DNA of 64,000 nucleotides from a virus (lineage: Duplodnaviria > Caudoviricetes). Below are positions 3,052 through 62,474 of this stretch, one piece after another (position 1 is the stretch's first letter; the number at the start of each line of letters is the position of its first letter). Both the position numbers and the translations under genes were made by a program. The DNA lies in IMG/VR virus record IMGVR_UViG_3300028888_000061, positions 1-64,000 of that record. One strand, given 5' to 3'. The notes beneath the pieces were generated by a model. The model saw nothing but the letters and a program-made list of their open reading frames with translations, did no database searches and was not told the DNA's origin.

Positions 3052-4596
3052 ATGGCAGCACAAGGAATCATTACGGCAGCACAACTCACGAAAACCGGGC
3101 GCATGGCTATGGCCGCCTCTTTCGGATACGACATGGTAAATAAAAAAGCCGTTTACCGAGGAATTACCTTTACAGGTGGTGGCGTGTCGGAACTTCCGAT
3201 AGACGACATTGATAATGCAGGTGTGGAATCTTTTTCTGCAAGCGAGGGAAAGATTCGGAACATAGTCTCTGTCGGAAACACACTTCGAGTTTACGTATCG
3301 TTCCAAGGAAATGGAATCGTAGCCCGCATCTTTTCTCTTCACTGCATGTACAAGAGTAAAAATGTCGTGTTCGCAGTATGTGACACTGGGGATGATGGGA
3401 TAACTTTGAGTACGCAAATGACAATTTGCTTCTCTATGATGATTGCTCAAAAAGCCGAGGATGACACGGTCTCGGAAATGTCCTTCGTCAACGGTGTCAA
3501 TGCAACTGTTGAAGACGTAAGTGCCGTAAGTTCTTATGTTGAAGAACAGATTACAGAAATCATCGAAAAAGTTGAGAACCTCGAAACAGGGTATTCAAAT
3601 CTCGGAACTTCACTAACGACATCTGCGGTAAATGCAGACACAGCAAACTTGAATAAAATGACAGTGACGGACACAGCCACCTGTAATATAGTGAAGTTCA
3701 CAGAACTGATGCCTGTAAAGGAATCCAACACAGACGGTAACATCGGCAAACTCGACCTGCCTGTAAACTCTATTACATCTGCTTCCTATGTGGGTCGTAC
3801 AGCCTTAAATGAGAATTTTGGAATCTTGTATGACCCTTATGTGAACTACCCGATAGGAGACTCATACAAGAGCATTAAAGCTGAAAGCACCCCTGATGCC
3901 GTTTTGTGTTCTGTTTCAAGCACCCTGAACATGGAAGAAGCATCTCACGCTGAACTTGTCCTTACTGGCCATTCAACCACAAAGGACACGGTGTCTCCGA
4001 AAGTCGTGTTACGTGCAACCCAGGACAGCGTAACAACAGAACTGTCCGTTACACATGAACGAATATCCGCGAACGGTGATTTCTGTGTGAATGGTTCGAC
4101 AGAACTTAAAGATACCTCAATCACGACTTTGGATATCGGGCATCTGCATATCACCGGTAATTACATTTCAGTTCCTTACTTTAACGGGTCGTCAGTATCT
4201 GCAATCTCAGATACGACAGGGGTAAACCCTCTAAATGTACAGGCACGAGTGCTTCCCTCCGGGAACAAAGCGTGTATTGGTTCATCTGAAAAACGATGGA
4301 AGCTGTATGCAGAGCAAGCCAGTGTTACAGGACTTTCGTTTGAGAAGCTGCCTGAAAAAACAGGTGTGGGTAACACACAGAAGGTTTCATTTCCGAAAGG
4401 GTGCATTACAATGCTTTGCACGCCGACGAGGGAAGTTGGTGTGTGCGATATGCTCAATGGTGAAACCGAGCCGTTACGAATATGGCATGATGCAGGCGGC
4501 TCTGCATCAGGTACACTGGTTCAGACAAAGAACAAATTTATTGCAATGTCCGGAGCTGTTGCTGGAAGACCTTTCCTTGCTTTATGTATCGAATGA
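3052..4596 (+). CDS. Tail fibre / collar-like protein
   Basis: N-terminal LTKTGR baseplate-anchor-like motif, coiled segment, beta-rich body with IGSSEKRW; C-terminal module resembles those of the 28656 and 38161 proteins. Confidence 0.55.
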   Translation: MAAQGIITAAQLTKTGRMAMAASFGYDMVNKKAVYRGITFTGGGVSELPIDDIDNAGVESFSASEGKIRNIVSVGNTLRVYVSFQGNGIVARIFSLHCMYKSKNVVFAVCDTGDDGITLSTQMTICFSMMIAQKAEDDTVSEMSFVNGVNATVEDVSAVSSYVEEQITEIIEKVENLETGYSNLGTSLTTSAVNADTANLNKMTVTDTATCNIVKFTELMPVKESNTDGNIGKLDLPVNSITSASYVGRTALNENFGILYDPYVNYPIGDSYKSIKAESTPDAVLCSVSSTLNMEEASHAELVLTGHSTTKDTVSPKVVLRATQDSVTTELSVTHERISANGDFCVNGSTELKDTSITTLDIGHLHITGNYISVPYFNGSSVSAISDTTGVNPLNVQARVLPSGNKACIGSSEKRWKLYAEQASVTGLSFEKLPEKTGVGNTQKVSFPKGCITMLCTPTREVGVCDMLNGETEPLRIWHDAGGSASGTLVQTKNKFIAMSGAVAGRPFLALCIE

Positions 4597-4730: not shown

Positions 4731-5477
4731 ATGCTTTTTAACGGACTTAATCTTACCCCCAAAGGTCGTCAACTGGCTGAACTCAAAGATATGGAGAACA
4801 TCCATGTTGGCCGCATTATCATTAACACAGCTACGGAACTTGCTGATTTGTCAGACCCGGCTGCTCTCGCTGAGAAAACAAACATTGCCGGTCTGTCCGT
4901 GATGTTTGCCGGTTGGCACAGCATTCGTGGTGGCGTACAACTCAATGTTCGCTTCCAGGTGAATGGCGAGAAAGCAAACGATGGTACAGGTGAAGCCGCA
5001 ATGAGCGTTCTGGACACAAAAACCACGCCTCTCCGTCTCGCCGTCCTCGCCGATGATGAAATCATCGCTTCTGAGAACGTCGAAACCGGTGAAGTGTCGT
5101 ATCGTGTCATTCGTAAGAAAGACGCTACGGTTCTTGGTTGGGCAGACGTTGTTGAAAAAGCTGAATGGACAACGAAATCTCCAAGCGGGATTGTCTTTGA
5201 TGCCGTGATTACTGCCAAAGGTGAACTTCCTTCACGCTGCAATGTGAAAGATGTTCTTCGTTGCCCGTATCTGTCCAATACCCAGATTAGCAACAATGAC
5301 ATTTGCAATCACGACCTTGCACCTTCGTCCATCAGTCCTCGTAACCCTGATAAAGAAAACGATGTTCCTGTTGCCGAAGCTAAACAGCAGCCTCGTGTCG
5401 AACCCGAAAGTGGTGAAGAAGAAGGCGCTGGTGAAGGCGGTGAAGGTGGAGAAGGTGGTGAAGGCGGAACTCCGTAA
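4731..5477 (+). CDS. Tail-associated hypothetical protein with (EGG)n C-terminus
   Basis: AAGGAG RBS before ATG 4731; LNLTPKGRQ N-terminal motif; low-complexity tail. Confidence 0.55.
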   Translation: MLFNGLNLTPKGRQLAELKDMENIHVGRIIINTATELADLSDPAALAEKTNIAGLSVMFAGWHSIRGGVQLNVRFQVNGEKANDGTGEAAMSVLDTKTTPLRLAVLADDEIIASENVETGEVSYRVIRKKDATVLGWADVVEKAEWTTKSPSGIVFDAVITAKGELPSRCNVKDVLRCPYLSNTQISNNDICNHDLAPSSISPRNPDKENDVPVAEAKQQPRVEPESGEEEGAGEGGEGGEGGEGGTP

Positions 5478-5497
5478 TAGCAACGCTGGTTATCTGT

Positions 5498-5545
5498 AAA
5501 ATAAAAACTCCCTAACGGATTGATTCTGTTAGGGAGTTTTTATTT
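5498..5545. terminator. Bidirectional intrinsic terminator
   Basis: AAATAAAAACTCCCTAAC...GTTAGGGAGTTTTTATTT between convergent genes; further hairpins to about 5635. Confidence 0.8.
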
Positions 5546-5643
5546 ATGTGACTATCAAATAATACGCACGTTGGGGCAAGATTATGCCCCTGCTTGCCCC
5601 AACCGAAAGCACGGAATCTCTTTCCGTGCTTTTCCTTTATCAG

Positions 5644-6387
5644 TTAGTCTCTACGAATTTCAAAGATACCGTCATCAGTCTGAACAAATTCAAAGTCCAT
5701 TTTAAGGTCACTGCCAAATGACTCATAGTCGAAGTAACGTTTAATGTTTTCCTCTCCGACGCCTTCCCATCCAATAGAATCTACAGCAGCTTCACCAATT
5801 TCTTCATCTGATGCATCCTCGTCACCACACCAGTATTCACCGGCTGTCTCAGGGTCGTCATTGTCCATTGGGTAATATTCCAAACGAATATCACGTCCAA
5901 ATGATTCATAATCGAAGTAGTTCGATGCGTTTGACAAGTTCTCAAACCCGAGAGAGTCAACAAAATACCATCCGATTTCTTCATCCATTTTGTGCGAGTA
6001 CTTCTCGTCACTGATTTTGCTGATGGAGTCTGATTCAACGAGGTCTAAAGCATCATTAAAGTCACTCGTATATTCCATTGCGGCTTTGAACTCTTCTTCT
6101 TTGTCATCATCAACGACACGTTCAAGGGCTTCTGCGTATTCATTTACGTCATCAAGACTCATATACTCACCGAGATTCTTGAGTTCAACCCAATCATAGT
6201 CCGTATCCCAGTCCGTGAAAAACCATTCCTCGTACACGGAACCGTCACCTCTATCTTCACCGATACCCACCTGTTTCAGGTAATCCTGGAAGTCATCCTC
6301 ATCACAAGGAAAAGGTACCCATACGTATTCAAGGTCACCTTCGTTGTACTTCCCAAGATTTGTCAATGCACCGCGTAATACGTCCAT
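5644..6387 (-). CDS. ardA: Antirestriction protein ArdA (type I RM DNA mimic), extended
   Basis: LTNLGKYNEG-L...W...P, YEEWFFTDWD, LGEY, YFDYESFGRD (twice); extremely acidic. Confidence 0.9.
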   Translation of the reverse strand: MDVLRGALTNLGKYNEGDLEYVWVPFPCDEDDFQDYLKQVGIGEDRGDGSVYEEWFFTDWDTDYDWVELKNLGEYMSLDDVNEYAEALERVVDDDKEEEFKAAMEYTSDFNDALDLVESDSISKISDEKYSHKMDEEIGWYFVDSLGFENLSNASNYFDYESFGRDIRLEYYPMDNDDPETAGEYWCGDEDASDEEIGEAAVDSIGWEGVGEENIKRYFDYESFGSDLKMDFEFVQTDDGIFEIRRD

Positions 6388-21026: not shown

Positions 21027-22127
21027 ATGAAGACGTTCAATATTCTGAATGTAAGCTCAAAGTTCGCAATATGCGGACTGCCTTTGAGAGCTGACACGTA
21101 CAAGACATGTTCATTTGGATGTGCCTACTGCTTCTCAAACAACAGAAAAATAATGGAGTTTGAGAAAACCTTGCAGATAGGAAATCTAAAACAACTGGAA
21201 AAAACTCTGGATAGGGTTCTTGACCAGCAGGACATCAATCAAAAAAACTTCATCGATGTCCTGCTGTCGAATAGACTCACATGGCATTTAGGTGGTATGA
21301 GCGACCCTTTCCAACCATGTGAAGATACGTATCATGTCACAGAAGAACTTTACCGTATGACGGCAAAGTACGGTATCAGCATCCTTGCAAGTACGAAATC
21401 ATGCAATCTTTATGGTGCATGGAAACACCTCAACCCTGAGTTGCATACGTTTCAGATGTCCGTGTCTAACGTGTTCAACCATCCAATCGAACCGAACATC
21501 CCAAAGATAGAGCAAAGATTAAGACTTTACAAACAGCTAAAACAAAGCGGTTTTCGTGTTGGAATCCGGATACAGCCTTTTATTCCAGGAATAACGACGG
21601 TAGACATTATTGACATGTTCAACGATGCAGACCACTTTGTGATTGAAGGGATAAAACTCGTACCGCAGAACGCATCACATGTCTGTCAAGTATTGGAGAT
21701 GACAGGACTGGACAAATCCATATTCACACAAATGGGACTTCTGAACATGAAGCCTGAGATACGTTTGTCGCTGTACAGTGATTTCATTGACAAGTTTGAG
21801 CGTGAGCATTTGTCATACTCAATAGCTGACAATGACATGCATTACATGGGAACATCCATGTGCTGTTGTGGAGATGCACTAATCACGAAAAGTGCTGGGT
21901 TCGACACAACGGCCATGACACATAAATTCGGAACGAATTACACACTTGAACAAGTCAAGACAGAACTGTGTTCAAATCAATGTGCTGACTGCAAATGTTC
22001 GCATCTCTTTACATCAAACAGGACGAATGGATGCAGCACAGTGTCTGAATTCTATGAGGAGCGTTTCAACAAACCGTCCTCACCATTCTCGCCAAAGTTC
22101 CTTTATCGTCAACTACCCACCAGATAA
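21027..22127 (+). CDS. Radical SAM protein (spore-photoproduct-lyase-like clade)
   Basis: DTYKTCSFGCAYC (CxxxCxxC), GGMSDPFQP, RIQPFIP, C-terminal CCCG. Confidence 0.85.
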   Translation: MKTFNILNVSSKFAICGLPLRADTYKTCSFGCAYCFSNNRKIMEFEKTLQIGNLKQLEKTLDRVLDQQDINQKNFIDVLLSNRLTWHLGGMSDPFQPCEDTYHVTEELYRMTAKYGISILASTKSCNLYGAWKHLNPELHTFQMSVSNVFNHPIEPNIPKIEQRLRLYKQLKQSGFRVGIRIQPFIPGITTVDIIDMFNDADHFVIEGIKLVPQNASHVCQVLEMTGLDKSIFTQMGLLNMKPEIRLSLYSDFIDKFEREHLSYSIADNDMHYMGTSMCCCGDALITKSAGFDTTAMTHKFGTNYTLEQVKTELCSNQCADCKCSHLFTSNRTNGCSTVSEFYEERFNKPSSPFSPKFLYRQLPTR

Positions 22128-22213: not shown

Positions 22214-22801
22214 CTACCGCCGTCTTCGCCGCACACGCATTCGTTTTTCGTTTCTTGACATTTGCCATTTGTAGTCGTCAAGGGCTTCGTCGATTTTCAT
22301 AAAACCTGTCTGGATTTGAAGCACGAGGTTTTTAATGTCCAGTATCATACGGGTCACGTCACGTTCAGTTCTCAAGTCGTAACCGTTTGACATGATTTCA
22401 TGTGAGAGATTGTCTTCAATCCAATTCACGATAGACGGCACATTCTGACATCCATCATCTATGGCATCATAAAGAGCATCGTACTCCAAGACCAGTTCTG
22501 CGTAGTCGTAATAGAGGACATCAACATGACAATTCTGCATGTCAAACGTACTCAGGCATCTTCTGTTGATAAGAATGTCCGCTATCGCTTTACCATTGAA
22601 CGTAACCGGTATCGTGACATGGTTTTCATCTATCTCGTAAACATCCAAACCTTTTGTGATAAGGTTGTAAACGACAGACAGAAAAAGGTCGCTTGCAGAC
22701 TCTCCTGAGATGCGTTCCAATCTTATACGACGTGGGATCATCCGTTTGACGGGTTTCGTGACGGATTCATGTTTTCGGGGTTTATTTCGTTTTATCAGCA
22801 T
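22214..22801 (-). CDS. Hypothetical protein (candidate internal head protein)
   Basis: MLIKRNKPRKHES leader, acidic body, poly-Arg C-terminus. Confidence 0.65.
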   Translation of the reverse strand: MLIKRNKPRKHESVTKPVKRMIPRRIRLERISGESASDLFLSVVYNLITKGLDVYEIDENHVTIPVTFNGKAIADILINRRCLSTFDMQNCHVDVLYYDYAELVLEYDALYDAIDDGCQNVPSIVNWIEDNLSHEIMSNGYDLRTERDVTRMILDIKNLVLQIQTGFMKIDEALDDYKWQMSRNEKRMRVRRRRR

Positions 22802-22844: not shown

Positions 22845-22880
22845 AAGAATGGTACCGCCTTTCGACGGTGGGTAGTTGAC
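22845..22880 (+). mobile_element. IS200/IS605 right-end remnant
   Basis: AAGAATGGTACCGCCTTTCGACGGTGGGTAGTTGAC resembles the tnpB right end ...ACCGCCTTTAGGCTGTTGGTAGTTGAC. Confidence 0.6.
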
Positions 22881-51614: not shown

Positions 51615-52481
51615 TTAAAAAATTGTGGATGTCTTTGACTTTCGCTCAGGAACCTCAGATTCCTGCGGTTTGTAATCCTCAAGTTCAATCCGAGACGAGG
51701 TGTCTTTTTTGGTACGTCCTTTAGATTTCGTGTTCCCAGATTTACGTGACGGTTTCTTCGTTGTTGTATCAGAACGTAAATGAATCTCAGAACACTCACT
51801 ACATTCTTTTGACGCAACAGAAACGGATTTCTCTGTAAACGACCTTTGACCTTCTTCTATATGACGTGCCGAGTTACTGTTTTCAGAAGCATGTTCGTTC
51901 CAGTCAATGATATAAGAATCTCGGTTTAGTTCAAAAGACGAAACCTCACCATAAAGACGTGCAAAGTCATTCCGTGTACCCTCAAACAAGAAAATCGTTC
52001 GTTGCTTTTTAACAACCATTCTTCTGCGAACAAACGAATTGATTATCTCTGTCAGATAACTATTGCGTTTCGCAACGCCTAACATAACAACACACAAACA
52101 CTCTGACGGAAACCAGAAGTCTCCGGACGAAAACGAATGGTCAAGTATTTGTGCATCATCGACATAAGAGAATCCATCCATAGCCGGAGGGAAGCAATCA
52201 CCTTCATTGTCCGTGTACATCATAAGAAGAGCATAAATAAGTCCTCTCAGTACCGGCTTCTTATAGAGCCATACCGTAACCGTGTCCCTTGAAAGCATGG
52301 ATAAAAACCGCTCTCTCTCAATGACAAGCATTCGATTCAGTTCGTCATGTGTAGGTCTGTTGTGTTCAGGGATACCACCCATACTTTGAAGAGCGGTCTT
52401 TCGGAACTTTATCCATGTAACTTGGTCGATTTTTTCAAGAACATCCCGATTGGATTCCGTTGACTTTGTGCTTTTTGCCAT
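51615..52481 (-). CDS. Hypothetical protein with disordered C-tail
   Basis: 288-aa ORF downstream of promoter copy 8. Confidence 0.6.
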   Translation of the reverse strand: MAKSTKSTESNRDVLEKIDQVTWIKFRKTALQSMGGIPEHNRPTHDELNRMLVIERERFLSMLSRDTVTVWLYKKPVLRGLIYALLMMYTDNEGDCFPPAMDGFSYVDDAQILDHSFSSGDFWFPSECLCVVMLGVAKRNSYLTEIINSFVRRRMVVKKQRTIFLFEGTRNDFARLYGEVSSFELNRDSYIIDWNEHASENSNSARHIEEGQRSFTEKSVSVASKECSECSEIHLRSDTTTKKPSRKSGNTKSKGRTKKDTSSRIELEDYKPQESEVPERKSKTSTIF

Positions 52482-52517
52482 AACGCCCCACCAAACAAAA
52501 AGAAAAACGCAAGTAGG

Positions 52518-52559
52518 ACTCTACCACAAATTTATGTAGAGCTTGAGTATCAGCACCAC
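52518..52559 (-). promoter_or_regulatory. Phage promoter motif copy 8
   Basis: GTGGTGCTG, N27, TGTGG-TAGAGT. Confidence 0.75.
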
Positions 52560-52566
52560 ACTGTCA

Positions 52567-52827
52567 TTATTCACTGATACCGAGAAGTTCCTTCCACTCG
52601 TTAATGTGTTCTGCATCTTTGTCCAACAAAAACTGCTCAAGAGACTTATCACGGTATTCAGGGTAATTCGATTCCATCCATTCTCCCAATGCAGTGATGT
52701 CAAGGACAAACATACCGAAAAGGAAAAGACGAGGGTCGATCATCCGTTTACGTTCCTGATAACCAAGACCAATGTTGGGTGCTAGTTCATTCAATTTCTG
52801 TGCAACAGCTGCCGGCGAGTTCAACAT
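52567..52827 (-). CDS. Hypothetical 86-aa protein displaced from its promoter by the tnpB element
   Basis: AGAAGGA RBS then ATG 52827, just outside the element's right end. Confidence 0.65.
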   Translation of the reverse strand: MLNSPAAVAQKLNELAPNIGLGYQERKRMIDPRLFLFGMFVLDITALGEWMESNYPEYRDKSLEQFLLDKDAEHINEWKELLGISE

Positions 52828-52842
52828 GTTTAACGTCCTTCT

Positions 52843-54291
52843 GTCAACTACCAACAGCCTAAAGGCGGTTGGCTTGTAACTGACCCGTAGCTCTTGAGCG
52901 AGTCTTTGAAACTCTACTACGTTTTTTACCAATCTTCTTTTCAGAAGATTGGCTGTCGTTACATCGTTGGGTGATTGACTGCACCCCAACATTGAGGGAC
53001 ATACCCTCAATGTTTTCTGTTTGTTCTTTAATCCATTGAAGACCAAGATTAAACAGATTCATTGCTCCAATACGGTCATCATTTGAACGATAACCACAAT
53101 TACGACAACAGAAACAATGGAGCTTCTTGTCTCTGTTAGACTTTTCAATGTGCCCGCATTTCGGACAACATTGGGACGTGTAACGTGGGTCAACATTGAT
53201 TACTAAACAAGAATTTCGTTGCGCCTTATACTTCAACTTTTGCTCAAGGTCATAGTATGACCAGCTCACTTGAACATAACGATCTTTTCTTTTGACCTTT
53301 TCAGCTGCACCACGAATCCCCTTTAAGTTCTCAAGCACAAAAAGCGTTTTTGAAGGATTACTGGTAACGAGTGCCTTCGATACACAATGATTTACATCGT
53401 TCATCCAACGGTTTTCTCGTTGTCCGATTTTCTTCAAACGTCTTCTACTTGATGATGTACCCCGTTTTTGAAGTTCTGTTCTTAATTCTTTGTACTGCGC
53501 CCTTTTATGCTTTACTTTTCCTCCGTTAAAGAATGTAGATTTGCCTTTAGAGTCATAGCTTACTGCAAGAAAATTTATGCCACGGTCAATACCAACCACG
53601 TTGCATATCTCAGAAACCTCACAATCCTCAACTTCTGATGTGACAGGGATGTGTAGGTAGTATTTACGTTTTGAACAGACAAGCCGGGCTGTTCCGAACT
53701 TGAACTTGTCTTTGTCGAAATACTGCTCCATTCCTTTTATGTCGAAGGGTGCTTTAATCCGTCCATCTAAAGTGTTGACGCTAAACACACCTTGAACAAG
53801 CGAATAATCACGATTCCATACAAGGTCTAGTTGAGGCTTTTGGAACTTTGGTTGAATCCACTGATGCTCTTCGGCAAGAATAGTCTTATATTTGGCTATC
53901 ACCGTGATAATGGCAGAACAAGCCATCTGTGATTTCAGACCAAATTTATCACGCAATTCTTCATAAATATCGTTATGGATTATTTCTCGTTTAAGGCATT
54001 TGTTTTCAAAGCAGTAAGCCGCAATTCTGTCACAGGCAAGGGAATACTGCACCATTGAACGGTCAAGTATTTTACGAACTGACCGTTCTGGGTGTATCTG
54101 AACCTTAGCTGTGACAACGATTTTCGACATTATTCTACCTCAAAAAGAAAGTCACACTAATTGACTTTCATTAGAATAGATGATATAAGCAAATTTGTTG
54201 AAAATCAAATATTGAGAGATAAAAATCAAGAATATTCGGGTTGCTTTCATCCAACGAGCTTTAGCCTGTGGGTTTCCTGCTCGCGGTTCTT
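52843..54291 (-). mobile_element. Non-autonomous IS200/IS605 (IS1341-like) element, tnpB only
   Basis: Left end TCAT|AAGAACCGCGAGCAGGAAACCCACAGGCTAAAGC; right end CAAGCCAACCGCCTTTAGGCTGTTGGTAGTTGAC; no tnpA. Confidence 0.85.
52859..54130 (-). CDS. tnpB: RNA-guided endonuclease TnpB
   Basis: RuvC-I GIDRG, RuvC-II VLENL, TSQ-CPKC...CRNC zinc finger, RuvC-III NDDRIGAMN. Confidence 0.95.
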   Translation of the reverse strand: MSKIVVTAKVQIHPERSVRKILDRSMVQYSLACDRIAAYCFENKCLKREIIHNDIYEELRDKFGLKSQMACSAIITVIAKYKTILAEEHQWIQPKFQKPQLDLVWNRDYSLVQGVFSVNTLDGRIKAPFDIKGMEQYFDKDKFKFGTARLVCSKRKYYLHIPVTSEVEDCEVSEICNVVGIDRGINFLAVSYDSKGKSTFFNGGKVKHKRAQYKELRTELQKRGTSSSRRRLKKIGQRENRWMNDVNHCVSKALVTSNPSKTLFVLENLKGIRGAAEKVKRKDRYVQVSWSYYDLEQKLKYKAQRNSCLVINVDPRYTSQCCPKCGHIEKSNRDKKLHCFCCRNCGYRSNDDRIGAMNLFNLGLQWIKEQTENIEGMSLNVGVQSITQRCNDSQSSEKKIGKKRSRVSKTRSRATGQLQANRL

Positions 54292-54297
54292 ATGAAG

Positions 54298-54338
54298 ACT
54301 CTACCACAAAATAAACGATGCCCTCACCACAGCACCAC
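54298..54338 (-). promoter_or_regulatory. Phage promoter motif copy 9 (now reads into the tnpB element)
   Basis: GTGGTGCTG, N26, TGTGG-TAGAGT. Confidence 0.75.
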
Positions 54339-54346
54339 TAAAACAA

Positions 54347-54380
54347 AAGTGGCAGCAGTTCGTGAAAACTGCTGCCACTT
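54347..54380 (-). terminator. Intrinsic terminator
   Basis: AAGTGGCAGCAGTT...AACTGCTGCCACTT. Confidence 0.75.
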
Positions 54381-54419
54381 CTTGTACGCACAAATACTCT
54401 TATAATACGTAAAGAGATT

Positions 54420-54854
54420 TTACATGGGCTTTACCAAAAATTGAGCACATTCTTCCATATCGTCTTGGTCTTCGCCATGGAAACAAAGCATGTAAGAATC
54501 TCCAGGCTCTCCGTCAACAAAGTCAACCGATATGTTAGCTCCATCAAACCATGACGGAGACATAACACGATTTAAAAAGTCATCAACAGAGTACGTCGCA
54601 TAATGTCCGGGCATACCGTTCAAAACCTGTAACGAGAATGAAAGACCCATACGATTAAAGTCTCTTTCAATACTGTGGAGTAACGATGCCAAATCACGCT
54701 CTGTTTCAGCCTCTACATGAGAATGCTTGTAAAACACATCGTCAATGTCCCTTGCGGAACTCTCATTTCTACGACGGAAGACAGACGCTTTATGTGACAC
54801 GAACTTCCGAGCTTCATTACCACGTTGCAGACCAAAATTGTTGAGGTGAATCAT
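54420..54854 (-). CDS. Hypothetical protein, paralog of 8111..8509
   Basis: FVDGEPG...EECAQF; basic leader RRRNES. Confidence 0.75.
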   Translation of the reverse strand: MIHLNNFGLQRGNEARKFVSHKASVFRRRNESSARDIDDVFYKHSHVEAETERDLASLLHSIERDFNRMGLSFSLQVLNGMPGHYATYSVDDFLNRVMSPSWFDGANISVDFVDGEPGDSYMLCFHGEDQDDMEECAQFLVKPM

Positions 54855-54866
54855 AAGTCATTTCTC

Positions 54867-55937
54867 CTACATGTAGCGTTTACGAATGGCTTTCGGAATA
54901 CGGTGTTCAACATTTTTAACGACATCATCAACACCAGAGCCAAGTGTTTTCTTTACTTGGTTCGGAACATCGGCAGGAGCACCCTTTCCACCATCCGTCT
55001 GAGGCATATACTCACGGTCAGGTGCACCATTGACAGCATTGTTCCCTGATTTAAGCGCAAGGCAGTTGTTCACTGCATAAGTGAGAACTTTTGCTCCGCT
55101 TGAGTTGTCATCAAACTTAGCGTCAATACGTGAAATACGGCTTGACGCACCTTCTCCAGTTTCGAGTACTTCATCGCAAAGTTTGTTAAACGCATCGTGA
55201 GCTGGTGAAGACTCCAAACAAACCTGTGCGGCTTTTAACATTGTGGTATCGCTGTCTTTCAGAACGTTCGATGCAGTCACATTTTCCTTTCCATCAACCT
55301 TGCTTGTTGCAATAGGAACTTTCCCGGTAACAGAAGCAATCACGCCTTGAACAGCAGCCAGTGCCTGTTTAGGTTCAAGTTTCTCTGAACACTTGAAATT
55401 GATTGCAACGACCTTTGCGTTTGGATTGAAAGCATAAACCTGAGACCAACGATGATGTCCATCAATGATGTACTTACCTTCAAAAATCCAAATGGCCGAA
55501 CCTGCCTTAATCTCAGGACTTTTTTCCATGAGCATCTTACGGAAGCTGTCTTTAGCTTTGTCAGGATTGTTTACAGTAAAACCAATGGAGTTTTCAAGAC
55601 CGATGAAATTCTGTGTCGGATACAATGAATGAACGTCATAACCTTTTTCAGCTTCTGCGGTAAATGTTATATCACCATTATTTCCACCAAAAGCATAATC
55701 AATCCATGCTTTTGCTTTGTCGTCATTTACACCATCCAACAGATGCTTAACGAAATCAGTGTAAGACTGCTTGTTTGAGAACTCAGACGGAGTCTCAACA
55801 GGTTTATTGTTATCATCGTCCGCTTCATAACGGCGAGTCCGACGATTGCGACCATAAGAACTTTCTTTGTGAAGACGTGCAATGTCTTCACCTGTCCACG
55901 AACGACGAGTTTCTTGCTTTTTTTTCTTAATCAACAT
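54867..55937 (-). CDS. ParB/Srx-fold protein with basic leader
   Basis: LYPTQ, YIIDGHHRW; MLIKKKK...RRYEA leader. Confidence 0.75.
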   Translation of the reverse strand: MLIKKKKQETRRSWTGEDIARLHKESSYGRNRRTRRYEADDDNNKPVETPSEFSNKQSYTDFVKHLLDGVNDDKAKAWIDYAFGGNNGDITFTAEAEKGYDVHSLYPTQNFIGLENSIGFTVNNPDKAKDSFRKMLMEKSPEIKAGSAIWIFEGKYIIDGHHRWSQVYAFNPNAKVVAINFKCSEKLEPKQALAAVQGVIASVTGKVPIATSKVDGKENVTASNVLKDSDTTMLKAAQVCLESSPAHDAFNKLCDEVLETGEGASSRISRIDAKFDDNSSGAKVLTYAVNNCLALKSGNNAVNGAPDREYMPQTDGGKGAPADVPNQVKKTLGSGVDDVVKNVEHRIPKAIRKRYM

Positions 55938-56036: not shown

Positions 56037-59000
56037 TTAAAAGTCGATTTCATCTAAAGATACGCCACACACACAATCGTCAGAAGGGCTTTCGTCTTCT
56101 GTAGCAACGACCTTAGCTTCGACAGTATGCGTGACTTTCGGCTTCACTTCAAGCGTATCCCATTCAGGTTCATACGTGTCCGTGTCGGCATCATACGTAA
56201 ATGGAACAAGACTGCCTAAATCGGTACGACTTATGGAAAGAGAACACTTGAGAGGTACTGGCCAGTCTTCACGTTCGATGGTCATACACTTAATACACAC
56301 AGGGATAACTTCCCTAGCCAACTCAATCGGGATAGAGAAATTGACCTCATCGTGAATGGTTGACATGAATTTCACTTGCGGATATGGTTTGAAAACTTTC
56401 TCCCACAATCGACAGAATATGATTTTCAAGACATCTGCGGCGGTCCCTTGAACTGCAGTATTTTTAGTAGTTCTCTCACCAAATGCCTGTTTTGCACGGT
56501 CAGGACTTGAAAGCCAAAACTTCACACGGCGATGACGACCGAACCCTGTGTTAATATCACCATACTGTCGAGCATACGCTATATTCTCTGCCTGACCTTG
56601 ACTGATTGCAGGAAGAGCATCTTTGAACTTCTTCATAAATTCACGACACTCGTCCAAAGTCATATCAGGGAATGACTGGTTGAACCCCTGTGCCCCAGAA
56701 CCGTAGAGTATGCCAAATGATGCTGCTTTCGCTTTCTTTCGTGCATCTTTCGTATAATTTTCTTCTCCGAACAGTTTGACTGCTGTGTTCCCATTCACTG
56801 TAATCCTGCCATCATAACGTGTGACAAGAAGTCCACCAGGAACCTCAAAACAGGAATACACAGGTCCCTCTGTGAGCGAGTGCTCATGCACTGAATGAAA
56901 AGTCATTCCGACATCTTTATTCGGACGGGATTCCATGTGAAGAGCATACCTGTCAGAGCGAATATTGTGACACACAACGCATGAATAACCACTGCATGTC
57001 AAATGCCATTGAATCCAGTCTGCAAGTCCTTTGTCTTGAATATAAGACCTGCCGTGAACATCATCACCATTTCCAAGACCAAGAGTGCTGTCTTTGCGGC
57101 ATGAAAGACCGTACAGCAAACCACATACAAAACCATTATGCTGGGCATCGGAGGTAAAGAGGAGTGCATCATCTTTCACGTGTCCTGATGTAACATCGAA
57201 ATCATGCTCAAGTAAGTAAGCAACACCTTTATCGGTAACAACAAGTGCGTTACAACCAACAAGACAGTATTTGTCAATGAATGCTTGTGCGTGATAATTG
57301 AACGCAAAACACGGTCTGTACGAAACGAACAATGTCTTATCAACGACCTTAATATCGGATGCGGAAAGAAATCCGAGAATAAACGATTCACAAGTATCTT
57401 CGTTTAAAGCAGTCTTGAAATCAACACGGTTGCCTACAGCTGTTTTCATTTGAAAACGCTGTTTTGCATTGCCGCAGTTGCGTAAGTTGTCAGCACGTTC
57501 GATATGGTATCCACGTTCATCGAAGCTCACATACATACGATGGTTGCCTGTGACGTTGAACACACCACTACGAACGAACACATCTTTTCCTTTATGCGTT
57601 GCTCGTTTGTCTGCACGTGTAAATTTAAAGGAATCTGACTTCTCGTCATAATAAGCAATCTCCATGTCAGAGGTGATTTGCTCCGCTTTCATCCACCCCT
57701 GTGATTTGACATAGAACTCAGTGTCCGGTGAATAACATGCCTTGTGCACGTCTGCACCGCTGTTGAACGCTTTTATCCATGTATCCTCGTGGTAAAGGTT
57801 AGCTACTATCCTCAATTCTTCAGCACACTGATGGACATTCATACCCTGTACGTACAGCTGGTGTTCTTGCGTCTGTACGGTGCAATTCCACACAGGTACT
57901 TCCCATTCACCAAAGTTCTCCATGTACCATGTATCGAACACATCACGTTTTTGCTGAACCCAAAGCGTGGCATCCTTGTAAAGGTAATCATAGATAAACT
58001 TCTCCTGCTCATCAGTTCCTTGAAGCCTGAGGTAAGTTCTGAATTTTTGGATATACTTCCATTGACCCTCAAGACGCTTCTGAACTTCGGTCATGTATGA
58101 AGCATCACCTGCAAGCTCAGTGGTAAACCCTTCATCGGTTTTGACGCTGCCAATCGCATCAAACATCCCTCGAACGAAATGTCTGAAGTTATCGCCCAAC
58201 CATTCAAAGTTCACTCGGTCTGAGGATGTAGTGAGTCCACATAGTATTCCCAAAGAAAGCAATCTTTCACAAACATCGTTTCGAGACAAATGCAGCACCC
58301 ACCATGCACTCTGCTCTGTGACTTTGTGCCTAATTTCATAACTCCCACCAAGAACTTTACCGATAAGTCGAAGGTGTTGTTCATCTTCTGACCAAACAAC
58401 CAACAAAAGAGAAGTGTTCTCGTCTTTCACGTAACGTAGAATATTACCAGAACAGAGTATGAACCCTAGAAGGTATGCTGACGTTGGTGTGCTATCACCG
58501 TCAAACACATTCATGTCATCCGAATACTCAATAAGTTCTGTACGTGGAACTTTTCCTTTAATGTCTTTTGCTTTGACTTGTTCTCCGTCAAGGATGAACG
58601 GATGGTTTTCAGTGCAGTAAATAGCCTGACCGCCGTTATCCGGGTACACCTTTATCATGGGTTTTACACCTGTACGCATAATGCGCTCAACAGTAACCCA
58701 TCCTTGCGGCGACCATACTTCATCTCCGGGCTTCATTTCGCAGATTCCCATATATCCACGTTTCGTTTGAACGGGCGAACCACCCTCAAGGCACATGTCT
58801 ATGGACACCACATAGCATTGGTCATTCTCAGGAAGAAACGCACGTCGGATATTAAGATTGTCAGGGTCCATTCCCTCGACCAGACCTTTTGCATCATCGT
58901 CAGGAATATCGTTCGAGAAATACCATCCGAGAATGTCACGTTTCTCTGCGATTTCCTGCTCAGTAGCCTTACGCCCTTTTAGCATGACGGCATGTGGTTT

Positions 59001-62000
59001 TGGCGTGCTCTGTACGTTATTATTCGTGAAGAATCGGTTCTTTGCAGAGGTGCCACAGTTGTGGTTAATCACACCTTCTGCAATATAACGATGCAATGGA
59101 TGATCAACAGTGAGCGTGTATGCCTCTTTTTTTCCACAAGATTCAATAGAAATAACTTCCTCATAATCAAACACTTCAACAGGAAGACACGAGTCCTCAC
59201 ACAAACGCATTACAGAGTACAGTGAGTATCGCTTGTTGTGATACATCGCCTTAAATTTATTTCGTTCACCGACTTTCCAAACCTCTTTTGCGAGACTGTT
59301 TAGAGCAGTAGTCAGAAATGTCGGAACAGATTTTTTTGTGTTAATTCTAAACGGTATTGAGTCATCAAGGTACTTCCTAAAAGACTTAACACAAAATTGC
59401 AGTCTCCATTGTTGACTGTACGTTGGGTTCTTTTCAGTATCAATCTTTAACCTGTGTATCTTAGTACGGATTCCAACGTAATCGGCCAACTTTTGAAGTG
59501 AACACACTAAAGAATAAGACGTTATATTGAGACTACTATTCATCTTACCATCAGACTTACGTATATGTTTCTCTCCCTCTGCCTGATAAAATCCACAAAG
59601 AACCGAAAAAGCATCTGCCTTTGAGTGTATCACAGAAAAATCAATCTCACGTTCTTTCTGTGGAACGTTCGCAACTGGAAACCATTTCGACACAATCCTA
59701 CAAGCAGTTGCAGACATCTCAATAACATAAAGAGTGTCTTTGAGTTCACGCATACTATGACGCACACCTCTTTCAACAAGGTTGTTGTGGATATACATCA
59801 TGGCATCGTAGTCACCATGGTTAAAAAACAAGCGCAATGATTCTTTACGTCTTCTCTGAATTTTGCCACTATGTCCTACATAATATGACCCATCTCCCAA
59901 AAAGAATCCATAAAGAAACATCTCGAAATTTATTTGAAGTCCTTTAAAACTTACAGCAGTACGGCATAGGGAATCCCCACATTGAATCTCAGATGCAAAT
60001 CTCCACACATACCCAGTATCAGACGGACACAGAAACCTATGATCTGAGGTACATTCGATTGACTTTCCAGAAGAAAGAACGAAGCGCAGAAATTCCTGTT
60101 CGCCTGTTCTGACTAAAGAAGCCTTGGAATATACATCCTTTGCAATTTCAACATCATGTTCCTCTGTAATGTCTGCAATACGAACTAAACCTTGCCGTGT
60201 ATGAACCAAAGCATCAGGAGAAAAACAGCTCAATCTGCCTGTATTATGCGTAACGATACCATTTGCAACATACTCATGGACATCTTCAACCTCGATGTCA
60301 TAGACCTTTGTTTCTCCGCCAACCACTTCGACATTGGCCACTTTTGATTCGAGATAAAGGCGCATTTGCTTCGGAAAACGAATCGACGAAAACCGTTCAG
60401 TCAGCGGATCAAAGTCACTCCACAAATCTTTAAGATTAGACAATGCGTAAGGTTCGTGAATGTCGATGCGAGTCAGCTTGCACTCTCCGAACCACGCTTG
60501 AAATGAATGCTCAGTAACATCACAGCCAACAGATGCCGCCCACAGCATGGGAACAATAAGGTCACGTTCCTTTGACGGAATAATAAACACAACACGGTCT
60601 TTGTGAATACCGTCAACCCAATTCTCAGGTATGTCTTTCACGTTATAAGCCGCAACCGACGTTCCCTTAGAATCCAAATAACCACACAGGAAATGTCTAA
60701 ATGTGTCGTGTAGTACGGAACGAGCATGTGCAACACGAACATAAACACTCACGTTATCGACTTTCTTGTTTCCTTGCGAATCTGACTGTATCTCAGAAAT
60801 AAGTCCGAATTGCTCAAGTAACTGTGACAGCACGTGCCTGGTCACGCTATACTCAACGCATTTACTATCCACATCGTAACGAGAAACATTCTTCTCACCG
60901 AATAATGAAACAAGTAGCTCTCTGTAATACGATGATGTTTTCCCACGAGCAAACCTTAACGTAAACAAACATCCGTCGATATTTCGACCTTTGCCGTAGA
61001 AGTAGCCCATAATTCTAGCGAGAATACAAATCTTTCCATTATCGCATGATGAAGCAGCACATGTATGGTTGATGATTACAGGCTCGCCCGTTTTGAGGTC
61101 ACAAAGCCCGGCCCATTCGACATCATCCTTTGTCATTCCATGAGGGTTGATTGATTCCAAAGGTGATTTGCGAACAAGAACAGGATGCCTATCAGTTCCT
61201 TCAATGGTCATTCCATTCTGCAACGTAACACGAAACACCTTATCGACATCGTGAGCTTTGTTCCATAGTACTCGACGATACCCCCATGCTGTCCAAATCA
61301 TATCGTCCTGGGTCACATCTTTTATGGAAATGAAACCTTTGTCCTTCACAAGAACCGTATTGTTTTCTGTCAGACATGGGACACTGTTAGTCTTGTAAGA
61401 AAAACGAACAGGGTAAATGTCCTGCTCACTTGCAGTCTTGATGTACTTGTCAAGGTACGATGACTTGAACTTGACTGTCTTCTTGTATTCCTTGTAAGCC
61501 TTAATGAAATCCTTAATGTCCTGTCCAATTACTGAATTGTGTTTCACCATCCATGCATCAATGGTTTTCAGGTCGGCTTTCATGGCACCGGTTGCTGTAC
61601 GTGCACCTGTATCAACACCAAAGCGTTCAACAAGAATTTTTCCGAACTGCTGCGGAGCATTCAGATTGAATTGTGTTCCTGCTAAACGGTAAACTTCTTC
61701 ACGTGTGCGTTCGATTATGGCTTCTACTTGAGGAACAAGACTTTTTAAATATTCCGTATCAAGACGCTGAGGTGTATTCTCAAGACGCATCAATGGGTAA
61801 AGCATGTTGTTATCGAACCGACTTGCCGGGAGATTTTCACGGTAGAATTTATTCGACACAATAGCCAACTGATATGTTGATACGGCGTCAGTACAAGCAT
61901 AACGATAAGCGTCCTCGGCGGGAACGTGTTGGAACGTAACAGCGTCACCCAACGTCTCATCAAAGGTCTTTGGTTTCCATCCCAAAAAGTGACGTTCAGA

Positions 62001-62474
62001 TGCTTTCAGAGAAGGCATGACGACGTTCGTATCAGCAAGCCAGATTGCATTTTGAACGTCATAGTACGGCATTCCATCAAGCGTCCATCCTTTATGCTTC
62101 AGTGCCGCCTCAAGGAATCGTTGGTCAAATCGACAGTTAAAAAGGAACTGTGTTTTACGTGTCTTTTTCAGAATGGAATAAAAAATTTCAACGGCTTCCG
62201 TTCCAAGAGCCATATCATCATGGGCGACTGGTACATAGTATCCAGTTTCCCCGTCAAAGGAAAACGAGAACCCAACAAGGTAATCCATGTCAGGGTCAAG
62301 ACCGCTAGTCTCAGTATCCCATGCCGTATAATCATGTTCGACATCATGCACACGAAGTTCGTCAAGAGAACGAATAAGCACAAATGTCAAATCCTTGTCC
62401 CAATCATCCCGCTCTTCCACAGCCGGGATGTAATGAACGTAACCTTTATGCAAACTCTTTTTGTCATCAGCCAT
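56037..62474 (-). CDS. polA: Family A DNA polymerase (3'-5' exo plus pol) with four inteins; about 738 aa mature
   Basis: WDTETSG, FNCRFD, YACTD; TGRLS, IDM|CAEELR (motif A), RKKAKAASFGILYG (B), IHDE (C). Confidence 0.95.
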   Translation of the reverse strand: MADDKKSLHKGYVHYIPAVEERDDWDKDLTFVLIRSLDELRVHDVEHDYTAWDTETSGLDPDMDYLVGFSFSFDGETGYYVPVAHDDMALGTEAVEIFYSILKKTRKTQFLFNCRFDQRFLEAALKHKGWTLDGMPYYDVQNAIWLADTNVVMPSLKASERHFLGWKPKTFDETLGDAVTFQHVPAEDAYRYACTDAVSTYQLAIVSNKFYRENLPASRFDNNMLYPLMRLENTPQRLDTEYLKSLVPQVEAIIERTREEVYRLAGTQFNLNAPQQFGKILVERFGVDTGARTATGAMKADLKTIDAWMVKHNSVIGQDIKDFIKAYKEYKKTVKFKSSYLDKYIKTASEQDIYPVRFSYKTNSVPCLTENNTVLVKDKGFISIKDVTQDDMIWTAWGYRRVLWNKAHDVDKVFRVTLQNGMTIEGTDRHPVLVRKSPLESINPHGMTKDDVEWAGLCDLKTGEPVIINHTCAASSCDNGKICILARIMGYFYGKGRNIDGCLFTLRFARGKTSSYYRELLVSLFGEKNVSRYDVDSKCVEYSVTRHVLSQLLEQFGLISEIQSDSQGNKKVDNVSVYVRVAHARSVLHDTFRHFLCGYLDSKGTSVAAYNVKDIPENWVDGIHKDRVVFIIPSKERDLIVPMLWAASVGCDVTEHSFQAWFGECKLTRIDIHEPYALSNLKDLWSDFDPLTERFSSIRFPKQMRLYLESKVANVEVVGGETKVYDIEVEDVHEYVANGIVTHNTGRLSCFSPDALVHTRQGLVRIADITEEHDVEIAKDVYSKASLVRTGEQEFLRFVLSSGKSIECTSDHRFLCPSDTGYVWRFASEIQCGDSLCRTAVSFKGLQINFEMFLYGFFLGDGSYYVGHSGKIQRRRKESLRLFFNHGDYDAMMYIHNNLVERGVRHSMRELKDTLYVIEMSATACRIVSKWFPVANVPQKEREIDFSVIHSKADAFSVLCGFYQAEGEKHIRKSDGKMNSSLNITSYSLVCSLQKLADYVGIRTKIHRLKIDTEKNPTYSQQWRLQFCVKSFRKYLDDSIPFRINTKKSVPTFLTTALNSLAKEVWKVGERNKFKAMYHNKRYSLYSVMRLCEDSCLPVEVFDYEEVISIESCGKKEAYTLTVDHPLHRYIAEGVINHNCGTSAKNRFFTNNNVQSTPKPHAVMLKGRKATEQEIAEKRDILGWYFSNDIPDDDAKGLVEGMDPDNLNIRRAFLPENDQCYVVSIDMCLEGGSPVQTKRGYMGICEMKPGDEVWSPQGWVTVERIMRTGVKPMIKVYPDNGGQAIYCTENHPFILDGEQVKAKDIKGKVPRTELIEYSDDMNVFDGDSTPTSAYLLGFILCSGNILRYVKDENTSLLLVVWSEDEQHLRLIGKVLGGSYEIRHKVTEQSAWWVLHLSRNDVCERLLSLGILCGLTTSSDRVNFEWLGDNFRHFVRGMFDAIGSVKTDEGFTTELAGDASYMTEVQKRLEGQWKYIQKFRTYLRLQGTDEQEKFIYDYLYKDATLWVQQKRDVFDTWYMENFGEWEVPVWNCTVQTQEHQLYVQGMNVHQCAEELRIVANLYHEDTWIKAFNSGADVHKACYSPDTEFYVKSQGWMKAEQITSDMEIAYYDEKSDSFKFTRADKRATHKGKDVFVRSGVFNVTGNHRMYVSFDERGYHIERADNLRNCGNAKQRFQMKTAVGNRVDFKTALNEDTCESFILGFLSASDIKVVDKTLFVSYRPCFAFNYHAQAFIDKYCLVGCNALVVTDKGVAYLLEHDFDVTSGHVKDDALLFTSDAQHNGFVCGLLYGLSCRKDSTLGLGNGDDVHGRSYIQDKGLADWIQWHLTCSGYSCVVCHNIRSDRYALHMESRPNKDVGMTFHSVHEHSLTEGPVYSCFEVPGGLLVTRYDGRITVNGNTAVKLFGEENYTKDARKKAKAASFGILYGSGAQGFNQSFPDMTLDECREFMKKFKDALPAISQGQAENIAYARQYGDINTGFGRHRRVKFWLSSPDRAKQAFGERTTKNTAVQGTAADVLKIIFCRLWEKVFKPYPQVKFMSTIHDEVNFSIPIELAREVIPVCIKCMTIEREDWPVPLKCSLSISRTDLGSLVPFTYDADTDTYEPEWDTLEVKPKVTHTVEAKVVATEDESPSDDCVCGVSLDEIDF
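56787..57737 (-). mobile_element. PolA intein 4 (317 aa, ends GN|T)
   Basis: CYSPD...VTGNHR...CFEVPGG...NGN|T. Confidence 0.85.
57828..58793 (-). mobile_element. PolA intein 3 (322 aa, ends HQ|C)
   Basis: CLEGG...CTENHPF...VWNCTV...VHQ|C within motif A. Confidence 0.85.
59058..60227 (-). mobile_element. PolA intein 2 (390 aa, LAGLIDADG intact-looking)
   Basis: CFSPD...CTSDHRF...GFFLGDG...GFYQAEG...NHN|C. Confidence 0.9.
60243..61376 (-). mobile_element. PolA intein 1 (378 aa)
   Basis: CLTEN...GTDRHP...VYDIEV...THN|T. Confidence 0.9.

Follow-up and report, generated by a model that had tools for sequence, protein, structure and literature searches.

We examined positions 1 to 64,000 of IMG/VR virus record IMGVR_UViG_3300028888_000061 (Duplodnaviria, Caudoviricetes), which is 138 kb long and has an estimated completeness of 72%; we call this 64,000-nt stretch the window. 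It carries a 1,449-bp transposable element on the minus strand (54291..52843) whose only gene is tnpB. Judged by comparison with its relatives, the element is a non-autonomous insertion sequence of the IS200/IS605 family, a tnpB-only derivative of an IS605-type ancestor with divergent tnpA and tnpB genes. The reading we favor, to which we give a probability of roughly 0.68, is that the element is stranded in place, that its TnpB nuclease and omega RNA (also called reRNA) are apparently functional, and that the empty allele of a sister phage serves as their target.

Both junctions could be placed to the base by comparing three independent insertions with one empty site. Scanning viral contigs, we found two further copies of the element, in unrelated phage contigs of 42 kb (L003) and 252 kb (L004), which are 88% identical to the window copy in DNA and encode TnpB proteins 94–95% identical to it. 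On the left, BLAST homology to both contigs begins at TTCAT|AAGAACCGCGAGC (window 54291); on the right, it ends exactly at window 52843, where all three copies read ...GGTAGTTGAC before diverging totally. The empty site comes from a sister phage (L010), about 92% identical to the window, that has the neighboring genes for proteins of 386, 86 and 288 amino acids (aa) and is missing the element. It reads ...CTCTTGTCAT|AGAAGGACGTTAAAATATG, with homology to the window resuming exactly at 52842, and comparison with it reveals no target-site duplication. A reading made earlier from the sequence alone (the sequence-only reading) had proposed the same junctions and the same length, and the empty allele of this relative has its junctions where that reading placed them. 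The empty allele that it had reconstructed by removing the element differs from the real one, which has 28 more bases between the -10 hexamer of the upstream promoter and CAT than the window does. Four of our contigs (L010, L055, L059 and L063) represent the same phage and were counted once; scanning viral and metagenome contigs with protein patterns of the 86-aa product, and for an exact match to the empty-junction DNA, gave only this one independent close relative. Among GenBank phages, a megablast search with the region returned no match and a blastn search a single one, unannotated and at 65%.

The window copy, L003 and L004 all have the pentanucleotide TTCAT directly 5′ of the left end (54292..54296 in the window, minus strand). 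At least five more insertions, all independent, have TTCAT next to the left end as well: they come from Geobacillus, Anoxybacillus, Brevibacillus, Bacillus methanolicus and rumen Oscillospiraceae, and their boundaries were set by comparing copies with different flanks. The motif is thus found in every insertion examined. The right ends of these distant family members read ...(G)GTAGTTGAC or a one-base variant. On this comparison we take TTCAT as the best reading of the target- or transposon-adjacent motif (TAM); the sequence-only reading, in proposing TCAT, had recognized its 3′ four bases and missed the first. For Geobacillus stearothermophilus, Meers et al. (10.1101/2023.03.14.532601) report that the IscB element ISGst5 uses TTCAT as its TAM and that ISGst2 TnpB2 uses TTTAT.

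The tnpB gene (54130..52859, minus strand) is intact and encodes 423 aa. Its product matches the Pfam models OrfB_IS605 and Cas12f1-like TNB (PF01385, PF07282) and the NCBIfam model NF040570 (RNA-guided endonuclease TnpB family protein; 183.6 bits, cut-off 100). In an alignment of 12 family members with 59–94% identity, the three RuvC acidic residues, D182 (GIDRG), E267 (LENL; LExL) and D352 (with D351 in SNDDRIGAMN), and the four zinc-finger cysteines, C322, C325, C342 and C345, are invariant, in agreement with the three acidic motifs and the zinc finger recognized from the sequence alone. These residues line up with the same residues in solved Cas12f. Cas12f and TnpB proteins are the nearest solved structures by sequence (E about 4e-21); compared with them, ISDra2 TnpB is distant (E 5e-4). 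The clade to which this TnpB belongs is common, with more than 4,700 database proteins at E <1e-100 and about 60 clusters at 82–94% identity, some of them on contigs of 100–244 kb, and it is abundant in the same metagenomes. Among species-representative bacterial genomes the best match has 61% identity, and the matches are mostly from Bacillota, many of them from the ruminant gut. Two other large phages that we examined have three and four tnpB genes.

By the ratio of nonsynonymous to synonymous substitution rates (dN/dS), tnpB is under strong purifying selection, at about 0.07: the window copy gives 0.065 against L003 and 0.073 against L004, with dS of about 0.6. The ratio is 0.04 over codons 1–360 and 0.34–0.39 over codons 360–423, a rise in the tail that fits shaping by RNA and not by protein. 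Codons about 370–423 (52862-53020, minus strand) encode a basic tail; the window reading frame here continues for about 50 codons through the omega RNA region, unlike that of shorter relatives, whose tnpB stop lies in the loop of the first omega RNA hairpin.

TnpB takes its guide from the DNA flanking the right end and cuts a TAM together with a matching target. Since the tnpB stop codon is only 16 nt from the right end, any omega RNA must fall inside the open reading frame. The last 208 nt of the element fold with z = -6.3 relative to shuffled sequences. Aligning the 185 nt upstream of the right end in 22 family members gave a consensus of five helices and 29 pairs, 22 of which show compensatory changes. 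Paired cells make up 93.4% of this consensus, against 70.8% for shuffled alignments (none of 500 reached the observed value) and 35–46% when partners are slid by 1–3 columns, and the covariation score is 0.614 against 0.187 for the control. The first hairpin (53011..52991) has a wholly different but pairing stem in L003 and L004, accompanied by amino-acid changes in the TnpB tail. Judged by this covariation, the omega RNA scaffold, predicted to span 169 nt (52843..53011, minus strand) and lying almost wholly within the 3′ end of the tnpB reading frame, is conserved. The window copy keeps 27 of the 29 consensus pairs, equal to the tnpA-bearing copies. Its last helix is the right-end terminal hairpin (52850..52873, minus strand), which covaries in the family and has one mismatch in the window copy. 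A search of Rfam over 52000-55000 gave no credible match, the int-alpA motif included.

The position of the right end, taken with TnpB biology, would make the guide the DNA just past the cut site common to all family members (52823..52842, minus strand, starting AGAAGGACGTTAAAC), as the sequence-only reading had it. This predicted guide, the 16–20 nt after the right end (AGAAGGACGTTAAACATGTT), spans the ribosome-binding site and start codon of the 86-aa gene, and the element parts that gene from its promoter. Both observations would suit a domesticated regulator, with the TnpB-omega RNA complex controlling the 86-aa gene from a nearby binding site on DNA or RNA, in the manner of TldR. TldR proteins are nuclease-dead TnpB regulators that have lost their RuvC catalytic residues. 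In the window TnpB all three acidic residues are retained, on which ground we rejected a nuclease-dead, TldR-like regulator, and the matching site in the phage's own genome is without a TAM; control of the 86-aa gene by this route seems to us very improbable.

What the element has lost becomes clear from its siblings. Between the left end and tnpB, L003 and L004 have about 390 extra bases with a 134-aa Y1 transposase gene on the opposite strand, whose product scores 115 bits against Pfam Y1_Tnp and 114 bits against the NCBIfam IS200/IS605 transposase model. The window aligns to L003 at 4437-4513 and then at 4905-6288, which places the scar of the roughly 390-bp deletion at 54224..54226 (minus strand). 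Because TTGAT flanks the missing stretch on both sides in L003, the comparison suggests that tnpA was lost through a microhomology deletion. No Y1 transposase gene was found in the element or anywhere else in the 138-kb record (72% complete), and together with the tnpA-bearing siblings this bears out the earlier description of a tnpB element without tnpA.

The left end (54225..54291, minus strand) has decayed as well. In L003 and L004 its transposase-binding hairpin forms a stem of 9 bp without mismatch (-13.6 kcal/mol, z about -3). The corresponding sequence in the window (54272..54251) is degenerate, with three uncompensated substitutions in three different base pairs within 22 nt, and its fold as single-stranded DNA is no more stable than that of shuffled sequence (-4.8 kcal/mol, z = +0.18). 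This loss is confined to the window copy. Of the hairpin ends noted in the sequence-only reading, that on the right thus survives and that on the left does not. A left-end hairpin is needed for TnpA binding in the studied IS200/IS605 members, and since it no longer forms here, the element is probably stranded in place. In all, every defining feature of IS200/IS605 elements is seen, by sequence, in the window copy or its siblings, the exceptions in the window being the transposase and the left-end hairpin.

The same losses bear on whether the element might still be excised and moved by a TnpA that the host or another element provides in trans, its TnpB then acting in 'restorative' retention after excision. 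Most Geobacillus tnpB elements are without tnpA and are thought to be mobilized in trans (10.1101/2023.03.14.532601), two other tnpB elements of the same phage have very similar right-end hairpins, and the abundance of the family in the same metagenomes also speaks for this possibility. Against these points stand the left-end hairpin that no longer forms and the lack of a Y1 transposase gene in the record, although only 72% of the genome is represented there, and we consider continued mobility quite unlikely.

A decaying element might also be an inert relic, its TnpB and omega RNA idle and the selection signal dating from before the loss of tnpA. The missing tnpA, the destroyed left-end hairpin, the weakened right-end hairpin, and the fact that no perfect target allele was found among the alleles examined all point in this direction. 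Yet the 423-codon reading frame is intact with all catalytic residues, and dN/dS for the window copy (0.065) is not above the 0.12 measured between the two tnpA-bearing copies. Moreover, the omega RNA retains as many consensus pairs as in active-looking copies, while the left end gained three disruptive changes in 22 nt. Such a relic therefore strikes us as unlikely, and the pattern, few as the substitutions are, would suggest that the transposase-dependent parts decayed while the nuclease and its RNA stayed constrained.

We favor a stranded element with an apparently functional nuclease, with the following history and proposed action. Comparison shows that the element inserted 3′ of TTCAT, within the short leader that separates a phage promoter from the 86-aa gene. 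It later lost tnpA through the deletion, after which the left-end hairpin decayed and the element probably became stuck. On the evidence of conservation, both the nuclease gene and its 169-nt omega RNA scaffold appear functional. By analogy with established TnpB biology, TnpB would bind an omega RNA whose 3′ extension is the flank AGAAGGACGTTAAAC..., and the complex would cut DNA where the guide sequence follows TTCAT. The phage's own copy would be spared, the right end (...GTTGAC) occupying the position of the TAM. No other TAM-flanked match to the guide occurs in the phage genome; given this and the right end in place of the TAM, the only natural target would be an empty allele carried by a co-replicating sister genome. 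Were the cut then repaired from the occupied copy, the element would be transferred, which would amount to homing that is independent of TnpA. Such homing against co-infecting phages is plausible by analogy: TnpB and IscB nucleases cut the TAM plus flank and promote retention of their elements (10.1101/2023.03.14.532601), and homing into co-infecting phages is listed as theoretically possible in a 2026 review (PMC13565253).

Several observations weigh against this proposal. The empty junction of L010 reads ...GTCAT|AGAAGGACG..., so that its allele has GTCAT rather than TTCAT, and it matches the guide over 14 identical nt before a 1-nt insertion. Related nucleases are reported to be highly sensitive to changes in the TAM (10.1101/2023.03.14.532601), and the L010 allele may be a poor target, an escape variant or merely that of a diverged relative. 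Because dN/dS covers both lineages of a pair, a recent loss of function in the window copy is possible. The argument from left-end decay stands on three substitutions, and the right-end hairpin, with its one mismatch, is itself weaker as DNA than in L003 (-7.1 against -12.1 kcal/mol). Finally, a putative terminator precedes tnpB: its 5′ leader contains a terminator-like hairpin and T-run (54147..54169, minus strand) just before the ribosome-binding site. Identity between the window and L010 stays level at about 92% along the two flanks, with no co-conversion gradient and no conversion tract.

The logic of homing follows what has been published, and the element is a non-autonomous member of a known family. 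With IS605-type and tnpB-only, IS1341-like elements such as ISDra2 of Deinococcus radiodurans and the ISGst elements of Geobacillus stearothermophilus, it shares the RuvC D-E-D triad and zinc finger, subterminal hairpins in place of inverted repeats (in the window copy only that on the right, with its one mismatch), insertion 3′ of a fixed pentanucleotide with no target duplication, and an omega RNA that overlaps the 3′ end of tnpB and the right end. Relatives in Geobacillus and Anoxybacillus, at 49–54% protein identity, have the same TTCAT motif and ...GGTAGTTGAC end. Unlike these references, which lie in bacterial chromosomes, the window element belongs to a large uncultured phage, it has lost tnpA and the left-end hairpin, and its TnpB is closer to solved Cas12f by sequence (E about 1e-21) than to ISDra2 TnpB.

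In published models of RNA-guided homing and retention (Meers et al., 10.1101/2023.03.14.532601; 'non-restorative homing', PMC13565253), the guide is likewise the right flank and the TAM the left-flank motif, the target is the donor joint or empty allele, and self-cutting is avoided by the right end replacing the TAM. The window element differs in having no transposase left, and by analogy only TnpA-independent spread between co-infecting genomes would be possible. It also resembles the free-standing homing endonuclease genes of T4-type phages (Seg, Mob), being a nuclease gene between conserved phage genes that would cut element-free sisters; unlike Seg and Mob, it would recognize its target through RNA rather than protein, and it has defined transposon ends.

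The insertion lies immediately downstream of a phage promoter (54298..54337, minus strand) composed of a TGGTGCTG box (54337..54330) and an extended -10 element TGGTAGAGT (54306..54298). We counted 13 copies of the bipartite motif (TGGTGCTG, 18–26 nt, TGGTA) in the 138-kb genome, where 20 shuffles averaged about 0.85, and several copies come after T-runs; by these counts it is a genuine, recurring class of phage promoter. A Bacteroidota-type -7 promoter was also considered and was rejected after the motif count favored the TGGTGCTG box with an extended -10. The -10 hexamer, TAGAGT, ends 6 nt before the element, which would therefore start at about +1 in the present geometry; in this respect the sequence-only reading, which put the insertion at a phage promoter, was right. 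It had further called this promoter 'replication-phase', a label that the distribution of the motif does not establish: the motif precedes the polymerase gene, yet copies also lie at about 0.7, 7.6, 13.8, 107 and 126 kb, far outside the replication block.

Nor did the proposal that the element is transcribed from the phage promoter find support. The element has a putative sigma-70-like promoter of its own for tnpB (TTGATT, 17 nt, TATCAT; 54180..54208, minus strand), identified by consensus match only, and at this site L003 and L004 have TTGACT, 17 nt and a TA-rich hexamer. The stem of the leader hairpin is kept in L003 and L004, which differ from the window mainly in the loop. With its own promoter and this hairpin in place, read-through from the phage promoter into tnpB would be possible, not required and perhaps attenuated.

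Upstream of the phage promoter is the intrinsic terminator of a 144-aa gene (54345..54382, minus strand), a 17-bp stem followed by a T-run. This gene (54420-54854, minus strand) and its terminator are missing from the 92%-identical sister, which has another terminator there. Closer relatives are represented in a protein collection, where 86-aa proteins 98% identical to that of the window come from contigs of 41,585, 41,861 and 19,864 nt that also encode the 144-aa gene. In a more distant relative (L012), a 34%-identical homologue of the 144-aa protein is followed by 4.3 kb of other genes, and the 86-aa gene is absent. The contents of the interval between the 386-aa and 288-aa genes differ in each of the three relatives compared, which makes it a hotspot for accessory DNA. 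The 86-aa gene itself (52567..52827, minus strand) is an open reading frame conserved in eight relatives whose product has no match in Pfam or PHROG. A second copy of the same promoter lies between the 86-aa and 288-aa genes (52551-52558 and 52518-52523, minus strand) and has an identical TTGTGGTAGAGTC core, which occurs exactly at only two sites in the genome, this one and that upstream of the element.

Other mobile elements occur in the same genome. The record has three tnpB genes, near 53, 65 and 101 kb, the latter two (65220-66760, minus strand, and about 100000-101377, plus strand, in record coordinates) being about 25% identical to the window tnpB and having right ends with a similar hairpin and GGTAGTTCAC. 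Searched with a right-end profile, the genome showed no further complete omega RNA and only a 45-nt remnant (130946-130993 of the record, plus strand), in which left-end-like first bases are fused to a decayed right-end hairpin and GGTAGTTGAC; this remnant has a terminator on one side and a TGGTGCTG promoter box on the other. Two solo hairpins that resemble the right end, each with GGTAGTTGAC at its end (22108-22117, minus strand, and 22871-22880, plus strand), face outward and bracket a 195-aa open reading frame (22214..22801). The replication block of the window element also encodes a family A DNA polymerase of 2,145 aa (56037-62474, minus strand) with several intein, Hint and LAGLIDADG matches; it contains four inteins and is another set of selfish elements in that block.

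Genes for TnpB have been reported in phage genomes before. Homing driven by TnpB has been shown in bacteria and on plasmids, and for phages it is a theoretical category (PMC13565253). The element described here offers a clean natural case, with base-exact junctions, a TAM, a predicted guide and an empty-site sister, and with no transposase to rely on, so that any spread or retention would have to come from TnpB alone. What makes it useful is that base-exact boundaries and a real empty site come together with an omega RNA of demonstrable conservation and with hints of a nuclease that has outlasted its transposon. Its TnpB clade (420–423 aa, TTCAT TAM, nearer to Cas12f than to ISDra2), abundant in metagenomes, could be of practical interest as a source of compact nucleases. 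The order of decay after the loss of tnpA can be seen in this copy, the left-end hairpin going first while the nuclease and RNA appear still constrained. More tentatively, and with considerable doubt, selection may have kept TnpB and its omega RNA as a homing or marker-exclusion nuclease in the competition of co-infecting rumen jumbo phages, in which case the GTCAT and guide-distal indel of L010 would be escape changes, and the many tnpB genes without tnpA and solo right-end hairpins of these phages would be traces of the same arms race.

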